Shown here in pieces: positions 7,107 through 59,060 of a stretch of 64,000 nt of DNA. This DNA is from an uncultured Actinomycetota bacterium (lineage in GTDB: Bacteria; Actinomycetota; Actinomycetes; Propionibacteriales; DAIQRJ01), in NCBI GenBank assembly GCA_963724495.1, contig CAVRUZ010000002.1:463425-527424 (forward strand), read 5' to 3'. The position numbers and the translations under genes are program-made. Under the pieces are notes generated by a model that was not told where the DNA came from, searched no databases, and worked only from the letters and a program-made list of their open reading frames with translations. Within the stretch, counting starts at the first letter, position 1; each line of letters begins with the position of its first letter.

Positions 7107-7620
7107 TCCGGGTCACGACCTTTGCGCCAGGTAGCGCCGCCGCCTGCGTCGCGTTCCATCACCGCCGCGACGTGGCCTGCCCGCGACGCGAAACATGCAG
7201 GAGCAGGCCGCAAAGCGGTCGATGTCGGGCCATATCGGACGCGGTCGGTCCTCGACTGCATGTTTCCCGCGGGTCATCAGGCAAGCCGGCCTCGCCCGGC
7301 GCCGCGTCCGCATGCGGGTCCAGGCCAGGCGCTGCGACCGCAAACATGCAGCAGCAGGCCGCAAGGCGGTCGATGTCGGGCCATATCGGACGCGGGTGGT
7401 CCCGACTGCATGTTTCCCGCGGGGTCATCAGGCCAGCCGGGCTCGCCCGCCGCCGCGTCCCGCATGCGGGTCCAGGCCAGGCCGCGACCGCAAACATGCA
7501 GTAGCAGGCCGCAAAGCAGCCGATGTCGGGCCATATCGGACGCGGGTCGGTCCTCGACTGCATGTCTCCCGCGGTACATCAGGCCAAGCCGGCTCGCCCC
7601 GGCGCCGCCTCCGGACGGTC
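7107..7620. repeat. tandem array, about 3.4 units of 150/151 bp, each unit = ~75-nt palindromic element plus ~76-nt conserved linker
   Basis: AAACATGCAG starts at 7191, 7342 and 7492. Element cores are 7191-7265, 7342-7415 and 7492-7567, with termini AAACATGCAG...CTGCATGTTT. The linkers are also conserved and contain the CCGCATGCGG palindrome. Confidence 0.9.
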
Positions 7621-7771: not shown

Positions 7772-8788
7772 ATGGCACCGCTCATCCAGGTCGACAAGCT
7801 CGCCAAGCACTTTCGCCGCCCGCAGCAGTTCGACGGCCCGTTCGGCGGACTTCGCAGCTTCTTCACGCACCGGTACAACACGATCAAGGCCGTCGAGGGT
7901 GTCAGCTTCTCCATCGAGGAGGGCGAGCTCGTCGGATACCTCGGTGCCAACGGCGCCGGCAAGTCGACCTCGATCAAGATGCTGTCCGGAATCCTCACGC
8001 CCACGTCTGGAACGGCCACGGTTGGCGGGCTCGTGCCCTGGCGGCAACGGGAGCACAACGCGCTGCAGATCGGCGTCGTCTTCGGCCAGCGCACCCAGCT
8101 CTGGTGGGACCTGCCGCTCCGCGACTCCCTGAAGCTCATCGGCCGGCTGTACCGGATGGATGAGGAGCGTTACCAGCGCAGCCTCGGGCGAATGACCGAG
8201 CTGCTCGGACTCGAGCCGTTCCTCACCACGCCGGTGCGGCAGCTGAGCCTCGGCCAACGGATGCGAGGCGACCTCGCAGCCGCCATGCTCTACGAGCCGC
8301 GCGTCCTCTATCTCGACGAGCCGACGGTGGGTCTCGACGTGATCGCCAAGGAGCGCACCAGGCAGTTCATCGAGCAGGTCAACGTGGAGACCGCCACCAC
8401 GGTGATCCTGACGAGCCACGATCTCGCCGACGTCGAACGGCTGTGCAAGCGGATCATCTTCATCGACGCCGGCAAGGTGCTCTATGACGGACCCGTCGTC
8501 GACCTCAAGCTTCGCTACGCGCCGACCCGCATCCTCGATGTCACCTTGGCTGAGGACGATCTCCAACCAGGACAGGAAGAGCTGACTGCCGGTGACGTAG
8601 CCGGCGTAGTCGGTGCCACCCGATCACCGGCGAGACTGCAGGTCGAGTTCGACCCAGCCGTCATCCCGGTGCCCGACCTCATGGCCGAGGTCCTGCGGCG
8701 CTACACGGCCTCCGATGTCGCGATCGTCGAGGCGGACCTGGAGTCCGTAGTGCGGCAGATCGTGGAAGAAGGAGGAGTGCGGCAGTGA
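7772..8788 (+). CDS. ABC transporter ATP-binding protein (ABC-2 system)
   Basis: Walker A GANGAGKST, signature LSLGQRMR, Walker B VLYLDEPT. Stop overlaps the next start (GTGA at 8785-8788). Confidence 0.9.
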   Translation: MAPLIQVDKLAKHFRRPQQFDGPFGGLRSFFTHRYNTIKAVEGVSFSIEEGELVGYLGANGAGKSTSIKMLSGILTPTSGTATVGGLVPWRQREHNALQIGVVFGQRTQLWWDLPLRDSLKLIGRLYRMDEERYQRSLGRMTELLGLEPFLTTPVRQLSLGQRMRGDLAAAMLYEPRVLYLDEPTVGLDVIAKERTRQFIEQVNVETATTVILTSHDLADVERLCKRIIFIDAGKVLYDGPVVDLKLRYAPTRILDVTLAEDDLQPGQEELTAGDVAGVVGATRSPARLQVEFDPAVIPVPDLMAEVLRRYTASDVAIVEADLESVVRQIVEEGGVRQ

Positions 8789-9630
8789 CCGCAGCTCCGG
8801 TCAGGCCGCTCGCACCCCCGCGGACTGGCCCACTCCGGATGGTTCCGGCCTGGACGACGTATGCCCAGATGGCGGCCCGCAAGGTCTACATCTACCGGAT
8901 GAACGTCATCTTCGGGATCGTCCTTACCGGCCTGACGATCTACCTGCTCACGGTCGTGTGGACTACCGGGTACGCCGGGCGTAGCGAGGTCGACGGCATC
9001 GCCATCGGTCAGCTCCTCACCTACCTCACGATCGCCAACCTGCAGGTCAGATTCCTGACGGCAGACGTGGATGAGGACATCCGCGAACGGATCCGTGAGG
9101 GCCAGATCGCCTTCGACATCAACCGACCCACGCCCTTTCCCAGCATGCTGATGGCGGGGGCTGCCGGAAAGATGCTCGGAATGGTGCCCATGCTCGTCAT
9201 CGGGCTCCCAGTCGCAATGGTGGCGGGCGAGCTACGGCCACCGCCGAGCGTGAGCGCGGGCCTGGGTTATGCAGTCTCGTTGCTCCTGGCGTGGGTGATC
9301 GCGGTCGAGCTCAACCTGGTCATGGGGTTGATTGCGTTCTGGACCCTCGAACTCACTGGCTTTCAGATGATGTACCGGCTGATTGGCCAGTTCTGCACCG
9401 GAGCCTTGATTCCCCTGTGGTTCATGCCGGACGCCATCCGGGTCATCGTGCAGCTCTTGCCCTGGCAGGCCATGGGATTCCTCCCTGTCTCCATCTATGT
9501 CGGGGAGCCCGTCACCGGATCGCTCTACACCGCACTCGGCGTCCAGCTGCTCTGGATCGCCGTTCTTGTGGGCATCATCGCCTGGGTCTGGCACAAGGCG
9601 TTCAGGAACGCGGTGATCCAGGGTGGCTGA
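8785..9630 (+). CDS. ABC-2 family transporter permease
   Basis: 281 aa, multi-pass hydrophobic. Translationally coupled to the ATPase, and it overlaps the next ORF. Confidence 0.75.
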   Translation: MTAAPVRPLAPPRTGPLRMVPAWTTYAQMAARKVYIYRMNVIFGIVLTGLTIYLLTVVWTTGYAGRSEVDGIAIGQLLTYLTIANLQVRFLTADVDEDIRERIREGQIAFDINRPTPFPSMLMAGAAGKMLGMVPMLVIGLPVAMVAGELRPPPSVSAGLGYAVSLLLAWVIAVELNLVMGLIAFWTLELTGFQMMYRLIGQFCTGALIPLWFMPDAIRVIVQLLPWQAMGFLPVSIYVGEPVTGSLYTALGVQLLWIAVLVGIIAWVWHKAFRNAVIQGG

Positions 9631-18462: not shown

Positions 18463-18537
18463 AAACATGCAAGCGCCACGCGTCCTGCGGGCAACAAAGC
18501 GGGACATGTCCGGACTCGTCCGGCTCGGCTGCATGCC
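18463..18537 (+). repeat. solo copy of the ~75-nt AACATGCA...TGCATG palindromic element
   Basis: AAACATGCAAGCGCC...GGGACATGTCCGGACTCG...GGCTGCATGCC. It starts 62 nt after the uxaA-like stop and lies upstream of the Rieske gene. Confidence 0.8.
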
Positions 18538-21685: not shown

Positions 21686-22589
21686 ATGACCGAGTCCGAC
21701 GCGCTCGTGATCACCGACTCCGCGCCTCCACCTCCCGCGGTGCTCGTCGTGACGGGGATGTCCGGAGCCGGGCGCAGCACCACCGCGCACGTGCTGGAGG
21801 ACCTCGGCTTCTTCGTCGTCGACAACCTTCCGCCCAAGCTGCTGTGGTCGGCTCTCGCGGCGATCCAGTCCGACCCCGCCGGGGCGCACAAGGTGGCGGT
21901 GGTCGTCGACGTCCGCACCGGCTCCTTCTTCGCCGACCTGGTCGGATCCCTCGACGAGTTGCGAGAGCAGGGCATCTCCCCGACGATCCTGTTCCTCGAG
22001 GCCGACGACAACGTGCTGGTCCGCAGGTTCGAGAGCGTGCGCCGGCCTCATCCACTCCAGGGTGACGGACGGGTCGTGGACGGCATCCGGGCCGAGCGCG
22101 CGCAGGTCGCCGACCTCCGCGGCTCGGCGGACCTCGTGATCGACACGAGCATGCTGAACGTGCACGACCTGTCCCGGAAGCTGGTAGCGGCCTTCGGCGA
22201 CGACGAGACGAGGGCACTGCGGACGACGGTGCTTGTCGTTCGGCTTCAAGTACGGGATCCCGGTGGATGCGGACCTCGTCTTCGACGCGCGCTTCCTGCC
22301 GAACCCGTTCTGGGTGCCGGAGCTCCGGCCGCACACCGGCCTCGAGACCGACGTCAGCGACTACGTCCTCAGCCAAGCCGCAGCAGGTCCGTTCTTCGAC
22401 GCGATCGAATCTCTGATCAAAGTCGTGTCGCCGGGATATCTCAACGAGGGAAAGCGATTCGCCACCATCGCGATCGGCTGCACCGGTGGCAAGCACAGGT
22501 CGGTCGCGATCGCCGAGGAACTCGCTCGTCGGCTGCGCACGCAAGGCGTGCAGTCTCTGGTCATGCACCGCGACCTAGGGCACGAATGA
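21686..22589 (+). pseudogene. rapZ: RNase adapter / nucleotide-binding protein RapZ, interrupted by a +1 insertion
   Basis: The N-half carries the P-loop GMSGAGRST and reads to ...ALRTTV in frame A. The C-half [32 protein letters not shown]...CTGGKHRSV is in ORF 22233..22589. Observed GTGCTTGTCGTTC versus expected GTGCTGTCGTTC. The span is 904 nt = 3n+1. Confidence 0.85.
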
Positions 22590-23575
22590 GCGGTTCCAAC
22601 CCCGTTCCCAGTGCAGTCACACCCAAGGTGGTCGCACTCGGCGGTGGCCACGGCCTCGCCGCGAACCTCTCTGCCCTTCGCCGGGTGACCCGGGAGCTGA
22701 CCGCGGTGGTCACGGTCGCCGACAACGGGGGCTCGTCCGGCCGGCTGCGGCGCGAATTCCCCTACGTGTTGCCGCCAGGAGACCTCCGACAGGCGCTGGC
22801 TGCGCTCTGCGGCGACGACGAATGGGGCAGTACGTGGGCGCAGGTGATGCAGCACCGCTTCGGCGGTGAGGGGCAGCTCGCCGGGCACGTCGTCGGCAAC
22901 ATGCTGATCGTGGCGCTGTGGGAGATGACCGACGCCGTCGCCGGTCTCGACTGGGCGGCGCGACTGCTGGGGGCGGAGGGCCGGGTGCTGCCGATGGCCG
23001 CGGTGCCGATCGACATCGTCGGCGAGATCGGCGGCCTGGTTCCGGGCGATCCGGGCGCCCTCGTGACGATCCGCGGCCAGGTCGAGGTGGCCGGAACCAC
23101 GGGCTGGGTCGCCGGAGTCAGGCTCGACCCGATGGATCCGCCGGCCTGCCCGGAGTCGGTGCAGGCCATCCTCGACGCCGACGTCGTGATCCTCGGACCG
23201 GGCTCGTGGTTCACGTCGGTGATGCCGCACCTGATGGTCCCCGAGCTGGCCGCGGCCCTCCGCGACACACGGGCCCGCCGCATCCTGACCCTCAACGTCG
23301 CCGCCCAACGCGGGGAGACCGACGGCTTCAGCCCCGGTCGCCACCTCCAGGCACTGCGGGAGCACGCCGAGTGGCTTCGGCTCGACCGGATCGTGGTCGA
23401 CTCCGGCTACGTCGACGCGGCTCGAGTGGCTCCCGAGGAGCTGGCGCGGGCGGCGTCGGAGTTCGGGGCGCAGCTGGTGGCTGCTGATGTGGCCGACCCC
23501 ACGGGTCGCCCGCGCCACGACGTGGACAAGCTCGCAGCCGTCTATCGCGACCTGGTGCTCGAACCGACTGGCTGA
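22586..23575 (+). CDS. yvcK: YvcK/CofD-family gluconeogenesis factor
   Basis: Contains [10 protein letters not shown]...[14 protein letters not shown]...[11 protein letters not shown] 22586 overlaps the rapZ stop (ATGA). Confidence 0.9.
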
Positions 23576-23697: not shown

Positions 23698-24678
23698 ATG
23701 GCAATGACCTCCCGCGTGAAGGCAGAGCTGACGACCATCTCGGTCACCAAGCCCTGCTGCCGCAAGGCCGAGGTCTCGGCGACGTTGCGGTTCGCGGGGG
23801 GCCTGCACATCGTCTCCGGCCGGATCGTGGTCGAGGCTGAGCTCGACACCGGCGCTGCCGCTCGCCGGCTCCGGCGCGAGATCGGCGAGGTCTTCGGCCA
23901 CGCCAGTGAACTGCTGGTGGTGCAGCCGTCCGGACTCCGCAAGTCCAGTCGCTACCTCGTGCGGGTGGTGGCCGACGGCGAGGCACTGGCCCGCCAGACC
24001 GGATTGCTCGACCAGCGTGGCCGCCCGGTCCGTGGCCTGCCGCCCGCGATCGTCAACGGCGCCGTGTGCGACGCCGTCGCCACCTGGCGCGGCGCCTTCC
24101 TTGCGCACGGCTCGCTCACCGAGCCGGGGCGCTCGTGCTCGATGGAGGTCACCTGCCCCGGTCCGGAGGCGGCGCTGGCACTTGCCGGGTCCGCGAGGCG
24201 GATGGGCATCTCGGCCAAGTCGCGGGAGGTCCGAGGCGTCGACCGGGTGGTGATCCGTGACGGCGACGCGATCGCCGGACTGCTCACCAGGCTCGGCGCG
24301 CACGAGGCGCTGATGGCCTTCGAGGAACGACGCATGCGGCGCGAGGTGCGGGCGACCGCGAACCGGCTGGCCAACTTCGACGACGCCAACCTGCGCCGCT
24401 CGGCCCGGGCGGCGGTCGCCGCCGGCGCACGGGTGGAACGGGCGCTGGAGATTCTTGGCGAGGACGTGCCGGAGCATCTGCGTGCGGCCGGTGAGCTGCG
24501 AGCTCAGCACAAGCAGGCCAGCCTCGAGGAGCTCGGGCAACTGCACGACCCACCACTCACCAAGGATGCGATCGCCGGCCGGATCCGCAGGCTGCTGGCC
24601 ACCGCGGACAAACGTGCGAGCGATCTGGGCATCCCCACCACCGAGGCCAGCCTCACGCCCGACATGCTGGACAACTGA
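23698..24678 (+). CDS. whiA: DNA-binding sporulation/cell-division regulator WhiA
   Basis: 326 aa. Starts [37 protein letters not shown] and has a C-terminal HTH region. Conserved position after rapZ-yvcK. Confidence 0.95.
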
Positions 24679-24857: not shown

Positions 24858-25934
<1,077 letters not shown>

Positions 25935-26014: not shown

Positions 26015-27208
26015 ATGAAGACCATCGACGACCTGTCCCAGAACCTGGGCGGCCTGTCCGGCAAGCGGATCCTGGTCCGGAGCGATCTCAACGTCCCACT
26101 CGACGAGGGCACGATCACCGACGACGGGCGCATCCGCGCGAGCGTGCCGACGATCACCCGGCTGCTCGACGACGGGGCCGGCGTCATCGTCATGGCCCAC
26201 CTGGGTCGCCCGAAGGGTGCGCCGGAGGACCGCTTCTCCCTTGCTCCGGTGGCGGCCCGACTGGGCGAACTGCTCGAGGGCGTGCCGGTGCGGCTGGCCG
26301 ACGACCTCACCGGGCCGTCTGCCCGCGAGGCGGTCGGGGCCCTGCAGCCCGGGCAGGTCGTCCTGCTGGAGAACGTGCGCTTCGATCCGCGAGAGACCAG
26401 CAAGGACGACGCGGAGCGCGGCGAACTCGCCGACGAGCTGGCCGGCTTCGCCGACGGCTATGTCTCCGACGGATTCGGCGCCGTGCATCGCAAGCATGCG
26501 TCGGTTTTCGACGTGGCCGGTCGGCTCCCGCACGCCGCCGGCCTTCTCGTGGCAGCCGAGATCGAGGTCATGCGCAGCCTCACCGAGGACCCGGCCCACG
26601 AGTACGTGGTGGTGCTCGGCGGAGCCAAGGTGTCCGACAAGCTGGCGGTCATCGACAACCTGCTCGCCGTCGCGGACAGGCTCCTGATCGGTGGCGGGAT
26701 GGTGTTCACCTTCCTCGCCGCACAGGGCCATGACGTCGGGAAGAGCCTGCTGGAGTCGGACCAGATCGACACCGTCAAGGGCTACCTCGACGAGCACGGC
26801 GACAAGATCGGCCTTCCCACCGACATCGTCGTTGCCGGCGCCGTGTCCGCCGACGCCGAGGCTCGCGTGGTGGCAGTCGACGGCATCGGGTCCGACGACC
26901 TCGGGCTGGACATCGGCCCTGAGTCGGCGCGTGCGTTCGCCAAGACCGTGGCCGCGGCGAAGACCGTGTTCTGGAACGGTCCGATGGGGGTCGCCGAGAT
27001 CGACCAGTTCGCCGGCGGAACGCGGGCAGTGGCCGAGGCCCTGACCAAGGTCGACGGTCTGTCGGTGGTGGGCGGCGGCGACTCCGCGGCAGCCGTGCGC
27101 AACCTGGGCTTCGACGAGGGTGCGTTCGGCCACATCTCCACCGGAGGCGGCGCCAGCCTGGAGTACCTGGAAGGCAAGACGCTCCCGGGCATCGCCGCGC
27201 TGGACTAG
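26015..27208 (+). CDS. pgk: phosphoglycerate kinase
   Basis: Starts MKTIDDL...[30 protein letters not shown] and ends ...[27 protein letters not shown]. Confidence 0.95.
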
Positions 27209-27211
27209 TCC

Positions 27212-27805
27212 TCAGCCCTCCGCCTGCGCTGTCGCGGCGTCGGGGTCGGGATCGGCAACGCGGTACTGGCTGCCGTCGGGCGTGCGCACCAGGAAGCCCC
27301 GATCGACAAGGGCACGCCGCAGCCCGGCATAGTCGTCGGTGACCTGCAGCAGGACTCCGTTGACCGCGGGTTCGGCGTAGTCGCGTCCGGCCTCGAACAG
27401 CGGCAGCACGCGCCGGGCGAGTCGGTCGGCCAACTCCGGATCGCTGGGGAGGCCCTGGAGTCGTCCCCACGGCAGGAACGGGCCGAGGTCGTGATCGGCG
27501 ACCTCGGCTCCGACCGGACTCTGGGCCACGAGGGCATCGACGGTCGACCGCACGGCGACCGCGTCGAAGGCGATCCGGTCCGGCGTGGGCGCGGTCAGCA
27601 CGCCGGCGTCCAGCCCTCGCCCGATGGCGTCACCGAAGGACCGCAGTGCCAGCCCCGTCTGCGGACGCAGCTCGTCCAGCAGCGCCGGGGTGCCAGGTCG
27701 GCGGGGGAGGGCGGCCAGAACGGCCGCGACATCCGGGTGGGCCAATGCGGCGAGCATCTGCGCAGAGCGAGCGGCTAGCCGGAAGCGTTCGACGTCGTCG
27801 ACCAT
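27212..27805 (-). CDS. DUF2087 domain-containing protein
   Basis: The C-terminal block [52 protein letters not shown] is typical of DUF2087. ATG 27805 is preceded by GAGGA. It is antisense to the glycolytic operon. Confidence 0.7.
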
Positions 27806-27868
27806 GCGGGGATCCTCGCCGATTCCTGGTCGGTCGAACCAGGGGCTCCGGAGCATCGTGCTGGCGCG

Positions 27869-27942
27869 AAACATGCAGCGGCCCTCGTGGCGGGCCGGAC
27901 AAATGCGCGCATGTCCCGACTCGGGCGTCGCGGCTGCATGTT
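27869..27942 (+). repeat. copy of the ~75-nt palindromic element
   Basis: AAACATGCAGCGGCC...GCGCATGTCCCGACTCGGGCGTCGCGGCTGCATGTT, with 10-bp perfect terminal inverted repeats. It lies between the GNAT stop and the DUF2087 start. Confidence 0.85.
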
Positions 27943-27982
27943 GGGCGTCACGGTCGAAGTCGGCGTGTGCGGACCTGACGCG

Positions 27983-28792
27983 TCACAGCTCCCGCCAGTT
28001 GGCCCGGACGAACTGCACGCGCATGCCCACTCGCTCCATGTTGCGATGGCTGGTGGAGAGGTAGTTGGCGCCGCTGCAGACGAACTCGGCGTCTGCCCGG
28101 CTCGCGTCGGCGATCCGCCGGCGCAGGAGAGCGGACTGGAGGCCGCGACCGCGGAACGCTGGGTCGGTGGCCGCGTCGGCGCAGTAGCCGATGTTGTCGT
28201 GCAGGAAGAGGATTCCTGCCGCGGCCGGGACGCCATCGGCGCGCGCGAGATACAGCCGCCAGCCAGGAAGCCCCAACCACGGGCGCACATTGGCCTTGAA
28301 CCCGTCGCCGTCCGGAATCTCTCGTCCCGCGATGTAGGCGTCGAGGAAGACTTCCATCGCCTCTGCCGTCGTCACCTGCTCCACGGACGTGTCGCCCGCG
28401 TCGGCATCCGCATCGGGTTCGCAGATCAGCGACGCATGGAAGTCCGCCTGGAAGTAGCCGAACCGGGCGAGCTCCCGTCCGAGGGCTTCGTCGTCGATGC
28501 CGGGCACGATCTCGAAGTTCGTCGTGGCTTCGGCTTGTCGGTACCACTCGACCAGGGGTGCGATGTGGCGCTCGAGCCCGGCCCGCAGCCCGGTGACGCC
28601 GTTGAAGTAGGGCAGGTGGCGCGCCATCACCGCCGTGACCCCGTCGTCGAGTTGGCGATAGGCGACGCCGACCGGGTTGCCCGGGATCCGCTCGAGCACC
28701 TGCAGGCGCGAGAGCTTGTAAGCGGTCTCGACAGCGACGGTCCGGCGGACCAGGTCGGCCGACGGTACGAGGTGGGGCATCGGGTCGACCAC
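27983..28792 (-). CDS. GNAT family N-acetyltransferase
   Basis: The C-terminal acetyl-CoA fold contains [17 protein letters not shown]. The GTG 28792 start is chosen by analogy with the identical RBS/start module of the neighbouring gene. The track ORF starts at 28828. Confidence 0.7.
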
Positions 28793-28852
28793 GGGCGGAT
28801 CCTCGCCGATCGCTGTCCGTCCCGCCACGTCTGCGTCGCGGGTTCCCGCGCC

Positions 28853-28926
28853 CTACATGCACCGGACCTCGACCCGCGCCCGACGAATGCGGGTATGTCT
28901 GGATTCGGGCGTTGCGGCTGCATGCG
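28853..28926 (+). repeat. copy of the ~75-nt palindromic element (diverged termini)
   Basis: CTACATGCACCGGACC...GGGTATGTCTGGATTCGGGCGTTGCGGCTGCATGCG. It lies between the divergent GNAT and tpiA starts. Confidence 0.75.
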
Positions 28927-29044
28927 TCGTGTCCGTGGCCGACCGTGCGGGGAGGCGACGGCCGCGGCCATGAACAGCTGGCCGCCGGACCGAGCCGCGC
29001 CACTATCCTGCGGACGACCGCGAGCCCCCAGGCACAGGAGCAGC

Positions 29045-29842
29045 ATGAGCAACCGCACGCCGTTGATGGCCGGCAACTGGAAGATGAACTGCGACCATCG
29101 CGAGGCCGTTCACCTGGTGCAGAAGCTGGCCTGGACGCTGTCGGACAAGAACCACGACTTCGGCGCGGTGGAAGTCGTGGTGCTGCCGCCGTTCACGGCG
29201 ATCCGGTCGGTGCAGACGCTGATCGATGGCGACCGGCTCGAGCTGAGGCACGGGGCGCAGGACCTGTCCCCGCACGACAGCGGCGCGTACACCGGCGACG
29301 TCTCGGGTTCGATGCTCGCCGGACTTGGCTGCGCCTACGTGCTCGTGGGTCACTCCGAGCGGCGCGAGTTCCACGCCGAGGCCGAGACCGAGTGCCAGGC
29401 CAAGGTGCAGGCAGCGTTCCGGCACGGGCTCGTGCCGATCCTGTGTGTCGGGGAGCCGTTGCCGGTGCGGCAGGCGGGGGAGCAGGTGGCACACGCGCTG
29501 GCCCAGCTCGACGGTGCTCTCGCCGGTCTCGACGCCGATCGGGCTGCCGAGATCGTGGTCGCGTACGAGCCGGTGTGGGCGATCGGAACCGGCGAGGTGG
29601 CTACGCCGGCCGACGCGCAGGAGGTCTGCCACGCCATCCGCGGCCGCCTCGGCGAGCTGTACTCCGACGATCTCGCCGATCGGGTCCGCATCCTCTACGG
29701 CGGTTCGGTCAAGGCTGGAAACGTCGCCGGCATCATGGCCGAGGACGACGTCGACGGCTGCCTGGTGGGCGGCGCGAGCCTGGACGCGGACGAGTTCGGT
29801 GGCATCTGCCGCTTCGCCGACATGCCTTTGCTCCCGGCCTGA
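29045..29842 (+). CDS. tpiA: triose-phosphate isomerase
   Basis: Motifs AGNWKMN, VGHSERR and [19 protein letters not shown]. Only the last 265 codons of track ORF 27887..29842. Confidence 0.95.
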
Positions 29843-29922
29843 CCGGTTAGCATGGGCTGCCGGTCCGCCGCTCTGGTGGGCCGGCGACGGGTGGACAAGT
29901 CGGGTTGCGTCGAGAGGGTTCC

Positions 29923-30153
29923 ATGATCCTGGGCTTCCAGATCGCGCTGATCATCGTCAGCGGGTTCTTGCTGGTCCTCATCCTGCTGCACCGCGGCGGT
30001 GGCGGCGGTCTGAGCGACCTCTTCGGCGGTGGCGTGAGCACCAATCTCGGCGGCTCCAGCGTCGCCGAGCGGAACCTCAACCGGTTCACGGTCGCGCTGG
30101 CCATCGTGTGGACGGCCCTCATCGTCTCGCTGCTGCTGCTCGCCAAGATCTGA
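29923..30153 (+). CDS. secG: preprotein translocase subunit SecG
   Basis: 76 aa. Two TM helices flank the Gly-rich loop HRGGGGGLSDLFGGG. Conserved position after tpiA. Confidence 0.85.
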   Translation: MILGFQIALIIVSGFLLVLILLHRGGGGGLSDLFGGGVSTNLGGSSVAERNLNRFTVALAIVWTALIVSLLLLAKI

Positions 30154-58984: not shown

Positions 58985-59060
58985 AGACATGCAGCCGCAC
59001 TGTTCGCGCGCCGCGGATAGCCGCACATGTCCGGATCTGCGGCCTTGGCCGTGCATGTTT
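58985..59060 (+). repeat. solo copy of the ~75-nt palindromic element
   Basis: AGACATGCAGCCGC...CCGCACATGTCCGGATCTGCGG...CCGTGCATGTTT. It lies between the MMPL stop (59088) and the ABC ATPase start. Confidence 0.8.

Follow-up and report, generated by a model that had tools for sequence, protein, structure and literature searches.

Our in silico analysis of a 64,000-nucleotide stretch of DNA (referred to as the window throughout) revealed that its gap, pgk, and tpiA genes are present in their canonical order on a single (+) strand, but that the adjacency of pgk and tpiA is broken by a gap of 1836 nt into which two minus-strand genes are placed. The explanation that best accounts for the locus as a whole, and which we hold with considerable confidence, is that an insertion split the pair on the branch leading to this lineage, that the insert was kept, and that palindromic repeats arrived later. 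Two unrelated genes would have entered the pgk-tpiA junction on the branch to a poorly sampled actinobacterial lineage, whose closest named relatives appear, among the matches listed, to be Actinopolymorpha and the Nocardioidaceae. This event would have broken an ancestral, tightly spaced whiA-gap-pgk-tpiA-secG string. The genes for a putative tandem-GNAT acyltransferase and for a BtmL-like protein would have been retained ever since, leaving the layout fixed in the lineage, and the repeats would have colonised the newly formed spacers after the insertion rather than having caused it.

The first-pass annotation of this DNA had placed the end of pgk at 27208 and the start of tpiA at 29045, with two antisense genes in the 1836 bp between them, and we found these coordinates to be exact. 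It had also noted that the stop codons of pgk and of the DUF2087 gene are only 3 nt apart; the sequence bears this out, with the pgk stop codon TAG at 27206-27208 and that of the convergently oriented DUF2087 gene at 27212-27214. The gap reading frame begins with a GTG codon preceded by an AGGAGG Shine-Dalgarno (SD) sequence, and that of the DUF2087 protein with an ATG codon that has the SD sequence GAGGA 8 nt ahead of it. The GTG start of the GNAT gene is confirmed by a 269-aa database protein (P0026) of 100% identity. In related metagenome contigs described below (L081, L082, L083, and L088), the Gap orthologue of L081 comprises 341 aa, and the Pgk orthologues of L081-L083 are of the same length as Pgk in the window. 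A putative frameshift in rapZ is situated around 22231. The features of the locus and of the repeats are compiled in the table.

Table. Genes, palindromic repeats, and the tpiA leader region in the window (strand "." denotes no strand assigned).
Feature	Position	Strand	Basis
Palindromic repeat, tandem array of three copies, 151 nt each	7174-7600
Palindromic repeat copy	18465-18536
whiA	23698-24678	+	ORF list, sequence, Pfam scan
gap, glyceraldehyde-3-phosphate dehydrogenase, first gene of the cluster	24909-25934	+	Pfam Gp_dh_N and Gp_dh_C
pgk, phosphoglycerate kinase, 397 aa	26015-27208	+	PF00162, 470.7 bits
Inserted gene 1, predicted BtmL-like protein, ArsR-like winged helix and DUF2087, 197 aa	27212-27805	-	PF09860
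Palindromic repeat copy C, inside the 177-nt GNAT-DUF2087 spacer	27864-27950	.	Pattern, fold
Inserted gene 2, predicted tandem-GNAT acyltransferase, 269 aa	27983-28792	-	PF13480, PF00583
Palindromic repeat copy D, degenerate arms, in the interval between GNAT start and tpiA leader	28848-28930	.
Conserved non-coding tpiA leader, candidate promoter and AGGAG SD sequence	28987-29044	+	Identity across relatives
tpiA, triosephosphate isomerase, 265 aa, ATG at 29045	29045-29842	+	PF00121, 293.9 bits
secG, 3' of tpiA as in relatives	29905-30153	+	PF03840, 52 bits
Palindromic repeat copy	58987-59058

For a comparison with other actinobacteria, we scanned with TpiA one genome per species, which yielded at least 80 loci with a top identity of 76% among the matches listed, searched these loci with the proteins of the window by tblastn, and looked for homologues of the inserted genes within +/-6 kb. 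In 79 of the 79 informative loci among the matches listed, pgk and tpiA are separated by 3-168 nt, and their stop and start codons often overlap (e.g., TGATG). These loci span the Dermatophilaceae, Nocardioidaceae, Actinopolymorpha, Streptomyces, and Nonomuraea, and tblastn detected no homologue of either the DUF2087 or the GNAT protein within +/-6 kb in the loci among the matches listed. The order whiA-gap-pgk-tpiA-secG is kept in most of the listed loci that are long enough to display it, and secG comes after tpiA in most of the at least 80 loci. One locus (L009) that lacked pgk upstream of tpiA was rejected as a second split since a scaffold gap of 100 N is situated just upstream of its tpiA gene. 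These data agree with the earlier statement that pgk and tpiA adjoin or overlap in most actinobacteria, and the empty site whose presence in related genomes had been proposed as a check was seen at the pgk-tpiA junction in all 79 informative loci listed. Since the two genes are adjacent there and free of the inserted genes, this sequence comparison supports the split arrangement as derived, the result of an insertion into a cluster that is otherwise conserved. The best matches of WhiA, Gap, and Pgk were found, among the matches listed, in Actinopolymorpha rutila and the Nocardioidaceae, which suggests a Propionibacteriales affinity of the lineage.

In Corynebacterium glutamicum, the gap-pgk-tpi genes are co-transcribed (PMC3996851). 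The locus studied here shares gene order and strand with this bacterium's gapA-pgk-tpi(-ppc) gene cluster and with the actinobacterial whiA-gap-pgk-tpiA-secG cluster, and its gap-pgk spacing is normal; it differs from both in the 1836 nt between pgk and tpiA, an interval occupied by a pair of antisense genes and by two copies of the repeat.

An identical pgk, DUF2087, GNAT, and tpiA layout, with the DUF2087 gene pointing toward pgk, is present on four independent metagenome contigs, and this recurrence excludes an assembly artefact. At the nucleotide level, identity to the window amounts to 94-96% for L081 and to 80-84% for L082, L083, and L088, the latter three being roughly equidistant from each other. 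In all five loci the DUF2087 reading frame ends at the pgk stop codon or no more than 3 nt from it; in the relatives, the two stop codons fall on a shared CTAG. Orthologues of the DUF2087 protein with 77-96% identity were found in metagenomes only, and a metagenome scan with this protein retrieved one short contig. When we searched 5.8 billion proteins with TpiA, clusters at 97% and 94% identity were followed by matches of at most 76%. This drop marks the lineage as isolated, and this protein search argues against the existence of closer relatives beyond the matches listed. Owing to the drop in TpiA identity from 94% to 76%, no lineage or genome intermediate for the insertion was found in this search or among the listed loci. 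Since every sampled member of the lineage carries the insert, it is best viewed as ancestral within the lineage and not as recent; the sequence comparisons thus depict an insert that appears to be fixed and not a recent mobile island. The first-pass annotation had reserved an ancestral arrangement for the case that the same two antisense genes sit between pgk and tpiA across a whole family or order; they do so in all sampled members of this lineage but not in other families (79/79 informative loci listed).

Homologues of the inserted genes reside elsewhere in unrelated surroundings. Those of the DUF2087 protein (44-50% identity) are encoded between genes for an MFS transporter and an aldehyde dehydrogenase. 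A GNAT homologue of Actinopolymorpha sp. B17G11 (72-73% identity class) follows a DUF1707 gene, and another (73%) follows mfd on a contig that also carries a gene for an outer-membrane beta-barrel protein and hence derives from a diderm bacterium; a protein from the Hyphomicrobiaceae is 64% identical to the GNAT. Since the homologues of the two proteins occur in separate, unrelated contexts, the genes are not a pre-formed pair, and the GNAT family, by its sequence relationships, seems to be horizontally mobile. Across the region, GC content stays level at about 0.70. For the inserted genes, GC (0.69-0.73), GC3 (0.84-0.87), and codon distance lie within the range of the window, so that the measurement of deviating GC and codon usage proposed earlier, when carried out, found both genes to be typical for their surroundings. 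Such a composition would fit genes that were acquired long ago and have since ameliorated.

A fully native composition, along with the occurrence of the insert in every sampled member of the lineage, would also be expected if both antisense genes had already been present in an early actinobacterium and had been lost repeatedly elsewhere. We regard this as extremely unlikely, however, since it demands many independent and precise deletions in at least five families (79/79 informative loci listed), and since the homologues of both genes in other organisms never adjoin pgk or tpiA. Furthermore, the 73% identity of the GNAT to its homologue on the contig with the outer-membrane gene is similar to that of housekeeping proteins to other actinobacteria (66-76%), and this pattern points to horizontal transfer.

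The insertion of two genes into the junction of a conserved pair has precedents in operon death by insertion, a described process in which opposite-strand intervening genes are taken to mean that a pair no longer forms one operon (Price, Arkin & Alm 2006, 'The Life-Cycle of Operons', PMC1480536). Common to the described cases and to the locus studied here are an ancestrally adjacent, co-directional pair that has remained near each other on the same strand and outgroup-absent genes in between: pgk and tpiA are adjacent in the outgroups, and the intervening genes are missing there but present elsewhere in other genomes. In contrast to the described cases, the pair affected here is a very widely conserved one of central metabolism, and the insert is fixed in a small whole lineage. 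We consider the locus a clear new example of a known process. Adjacent pgk and tpiA genes form one of the most stable pairs in Actinomycetota, and a lineage in which the two are permanently separated serves as a natural experiment on the need to co-transcribe the genes of lower glycolysis. This locus is, in addition, a concrete candidate case of a downstream gene gaining a new promoter after an operon split, and it serves as a marker for an isolated and mostly uncultured lineage whose TpiA is at most 76% identical to any other. Otherwise it is an ordinary genome rearrangement and not a new kind of system.

The palindromic element that the first-pass annotation had noticed ahead of each antisense gene is indeed present at both positions (copies C and D in the table). 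It is 70-90 nt in length with ACATGCAG...CTGCATGT ends; its exact pattern has five matches in the window where none is expected by chance, and seven copies are present once degenerate ones are counted. Intact copies fold into long hairpins (z-scores of -2 to -3.8; copy C, -2.6), whereas copy D, with 78% identity to copy C, has no stable fold (z-score of +1.4). Copies B to E share one common chromosomal orientation irrespective of the direction of the neighbouring genes, and those outside the insert occupy ordinary spacers between co-directional genes. L081 contains three and L082 two members of the family; in about 0.96 Mb from the at least 80 other actinobacterial loci, only nine loose, chance-like pattern matches were detected. 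The site of copy C is filled in the window, L081, L082, and L088 and empty in L083, and an orthologue of copy D was found in L081 and L082; the flanking sequences have diverged considerably between filled and empty sites. No Rfam family matched, either in the whole window at gathering thresholds or in 27780-29060 at E<=5; the repeats and leaders therefore do not belong to a known RNA family. Terminal inverted repeats, dispersed intergenic copies, and orthologous sites that are filled in some genomes and empty in others give the repeats the look of a MITE/REP-like family specific to this lineage. With REP/BIME and MITE repeats, they have in common a size of about 70-90 nt, terminal inverted repeats, and an intergenic, multi-copy, partly tandem, and lineage-specific occurrence, and differ from the known ones in that Rfam holds no match to them.

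Could these elements have carried, or recombined, a two-gene cassette into the operon, as the first-pass annotation had proposed? The family is dispersed and polymorphic, and hence is or was mobile; a copy precedes each inserted gene, and the GNAT and DUF2087 genes share about 170 nt of homologous upstream sequence (about 75% identity), including the SD sequence, ATCGGCGAGGATCC, and the start codon. Yet the copies are found only inside the insert and on its tpiA side; none is present at the pgk/DUF2087 boundary, where just 3 nt separate the genes, so that repeats do not flank the cassette. L083 possesses both genes with a spacer of 60 nt (177 nt in the window) and without the internal copy, which speaks against a role of that copy in the insertion, as does the location of other family members in ordinary co-directional spacers. 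The insert consists of two genes only and hence encodes no transposase or integrase, no tRNA gene was found within the 64-kb window, and in composition and codon use the two genes resemble the rest of the window. None of the hallmarks of a composite transposon or repeat cassette (flanking on both sides, a mobility gene, a tRNA site, or an odd composition) is thus displayed by the locus, and we consider repeat-mediated insertion very unlikely. Of the earlier proposal of a repeat-mediated insertion into a core operon, the insertion that splits a conserved cluster has stood up to analysis, but the mediation by repeats has not.

The product of the first inserted gene matches PF09860 with 64.1 bits (cut-off 22.4) over residues 138-205 of the long open reading frame, and has a weak sequence match to YgaV/ArsR proteins (YgaV, E = 0.016). 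Its AlphaFold model (pLDDT 90.9) consists of tandem winged-helix domains, the N-terminal one of which aligns with the ArsR-family proteins NolR and HlyU (probability 0.99-1.0; TM 0.60-0.64 normalised to target). The N-terminus is hence predicted, at the level of the fold, to be an ArsR/SmtB-like winged helix, and the model depicts the protein as a BtmL-like double winged-helix protein and putative regulator. BtmL from Streptomyces scabies likewise is a protein of about 20 kDa with a predicted N-terminal ArsR/SmtB-like winged helix and a C-terminal DUF2087 (PMC7113386). It is the only studied DUF2087 protein, a "cluster-situated modulator" with a modest positive effect on bottromycin biosynthesis, its function is partly understood, and no DNA target has been demonstrated for it (PMC7113386). 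Unlike BtmL, the protein studied here is encoded outside a biosynthetic cluster, and the two are likened to each other by description.

The second inserted protein matches PF13480 (27.3 bits; cut-off 22) and PF00583 (22.6 bits; cut-off 20.7), and its model (pLDDT 89.7) displays a two-domain GNAT fold. The top Foldseek matches are two-domain GNATs as well: 3frm, 4ius, VipF, MshD, and Sba18 (E values of 1e-9 to 1e-12). On comparison with the acyl-CoA binding motif A (R/Q-x-x-G-x-G/A), R214 and G217, which stand in the context FRGRGLQ, proved to be conserved without exception in 41 homologues; the sixth position is occupied by Q, not G/A. Pfam matches and model characterise the protein as a predicted tandem-GNAT acyltransferase. 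With MshD, VipF, the Kribbella protein (PDB 4ius), 3frm, and the aminoacyl-tRNA-dependent enzymes Sba18/Sbb17, it shares two GNAT-fold domains, a length of about 270 aa, and TM scores of 0.5-0.65, but only 12-17% sequence identity. NCBIfam contains no named equivalog for either inserted protein, and this includes MshD for the GNAT. We also considered the pair as a GNAT-RHH toxin-antitoxin system of the TacT/AtaT type and rejected this assignment, as the GNAT is a 269-aa tandem-domain and not a small single-domain protein, and its partner is a 197-aa winged-helix protein encoded downstream, not an upstream overlapping RHH/DUF1778 protein. PADLOC and Pfam gave no toxin-antitoxin or defence matches for the pair, and a defence role was rejected as well for this lack of support.

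After the split, tpiA-secG would have to be expressed separately from gap-pgk. The 58 nt ahead of tpiA are strongly conserved (about 95-100%; 92-98% identity to L082, a locus that is about 82% identical overall), while the other non-coding spacers are 32-78% identical. Within this leader lie an AGGAG SD sequence and a conserved, -10-like hexamer of the TANNNT type (TATCCT, 29004-29009). A scan for the TTGACA/TATAAT consensus detected no sigma-70 promoter; negative scans of this kind are common in high-GC actinobacteria. A search for a motif shared by the tpiA leader and the promoter region of gap found none. It had been claimed that tpiA-secG must use a promoter of its own within 28793-29044; the conserved leader with its hexamer and SD sequence makes such a promoter plausible, although the consensus scan came out empty. 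Thus, tpiA and secG are probably expressed from a promoter and leader of their own within these 58 nt. For the GNAT and DUF2087 genes, no -10 hexamer was evident. Their spacer is short (60 nt) in L083, which suggests that they are co-transcribed, divergently from tpiA; they would form a small leftward unit, probably bicistronic, that is driven from the spacer shared with tpiA.

At the other end of the insert, transcription of gap-pgk and that of the DUF2087 gene would converge without a spacer or recognisable terminator. The consensus scan found terminator-like sites only inside pgk and secG, and when the pgk/DUF2087 junctions of three genomes were folded, no conserved hairpin emerged (z-scores of -0.7 to +1.6). 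With neither a spacer nor a conserved terminator hairpin at this junction, the pgk and DUF2087 transcripts probably overlap at their 3' ends, or may be stopped by a factor. Read-through from pgk over 1.8 kb into tpiA may also occur.

A further conceivable reading is that the module has become wired into central metabolism: the BtmL-like protein could control tpiA-secG by binding to the promoter region shared by the divergent GNAT and tpiA genes, the GNAT could acylate a glycolytic enzyme, or convergent antisense transcription could tune the 3' end of pgk and, with it, gap-pgk. Such a recruitment would fit with the maintenance of the module at its site across a divergence of 80-96% nt identity, the zero-spacer convergent junction in all five loci, and the highly conserved tpiA leader that adjoins the divergent spacer. 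The upstream sequence shared by the two inserted genes would fit as well, as would the fact that ArsR-type regulators commonly autoregulate. On the other hand, the homologues elsewhere have no association with glycolysis genes, the conserved tpiA leader contains no operator-like inverted repeat, BtmL itself lacks a demonstrated DNA target (PMC7113386), and retention of the module may simply reflect that its deletion would deprive tpiA of its promoter. We therefore view recruitment as unlikely and continue to favour an insertion whose genes were kept. If recruitment had taken place, tpiA-secG would respond to a new signal, and the module would owe its retention in this lineage to its uncoupling of triose-phosphate isomerase from the other steps of lower glycolysis.

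The spacer between the GNAT and DUF2087 genes is only 60 nt long on L083 (positions 290-349), a metagenome contig sharing the pgk-DUF2087-GNAT-tpiA layout, compared to 177 nt at the orthologous position of the window (27806-27982), and it lacks the palindromic element. L083 290-349 is a natural empty site of the repeat family. The four non-tandem copies of the element in the window share a central GGACATGTCC-like palindrome, and all of them lie in one chromosomal orientation, regardless of the direction of the flanking genes; this uniformity is reminiscent of the strand bias of REP and IS200/IS605-type elements. The tandem array of a variant of the element fills the spacer between two plus-strand genes; its copies are mutually 82-89% identical, and a strong hairpin is predicted for each unit (fold z-score -3.8).

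Positions of repeat copies and further features
Feature	Sequence	Position	Remarks
Tandem array, variant of palindromic element	window	7174-7600	3 copies, period 151 nt
Non-tandem palindromic repeat copies (n = 4)	window	18465-18536, 27871-27941, 28855-28925, 58987-59058	
rapZ region, with frameshift	window	21686-23575	shift near 22231
GNAT homologue	L087 (ENA ERZ27247320 k141_592658)	8001-8825	73% identical to window GNAT

The final 15-20 codons of the DUF2087 gene (27212-27262) are weakly conserved relative to the orthologues of L081, L082, and L083, three contigs with the same layout (50-78% nucleotide identity), and tail length varies. In these three contigs, the reading frame continues to the CTAG that also terminates pgk. 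The protein tail looks like translated spacer.

Small insertions at the pgk-tpiA junction are tolerated in other lineages as well. A few Dermatophilaceae and Angustibacter relatives (L001, L004, L011, L051) possess larger spacers of 106-168 nt, with GC-rich hairpin-like sequences located about 100-170 nt before tpiA.

Alongside its GNAT homologue, the contig L087 encodes an outer-membrane beta-barrel protein as well as Sdh5 and TrcR, so it appears to derive from a diderm. The identity of its GNAT homologue to the window protein equals the level found for housekeeping proteins among actinobacteria, and this match suggests inter-phylum transfer of the GNAT family.

The rapZ gene of the window carries a single additional G (ACGGTGCTTGTCG, compared to ACGGT-CTTGTCG in L081), and its reading frame is lost past approximately residue 185, while the +1 frame still encodes an intact C-terminal RapZ domain. 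This G reflects either an assembly error or a genuine frameshift or pseudogene. A 629-aa rapZ-yvcK fusion in the ORF list is an artefact.
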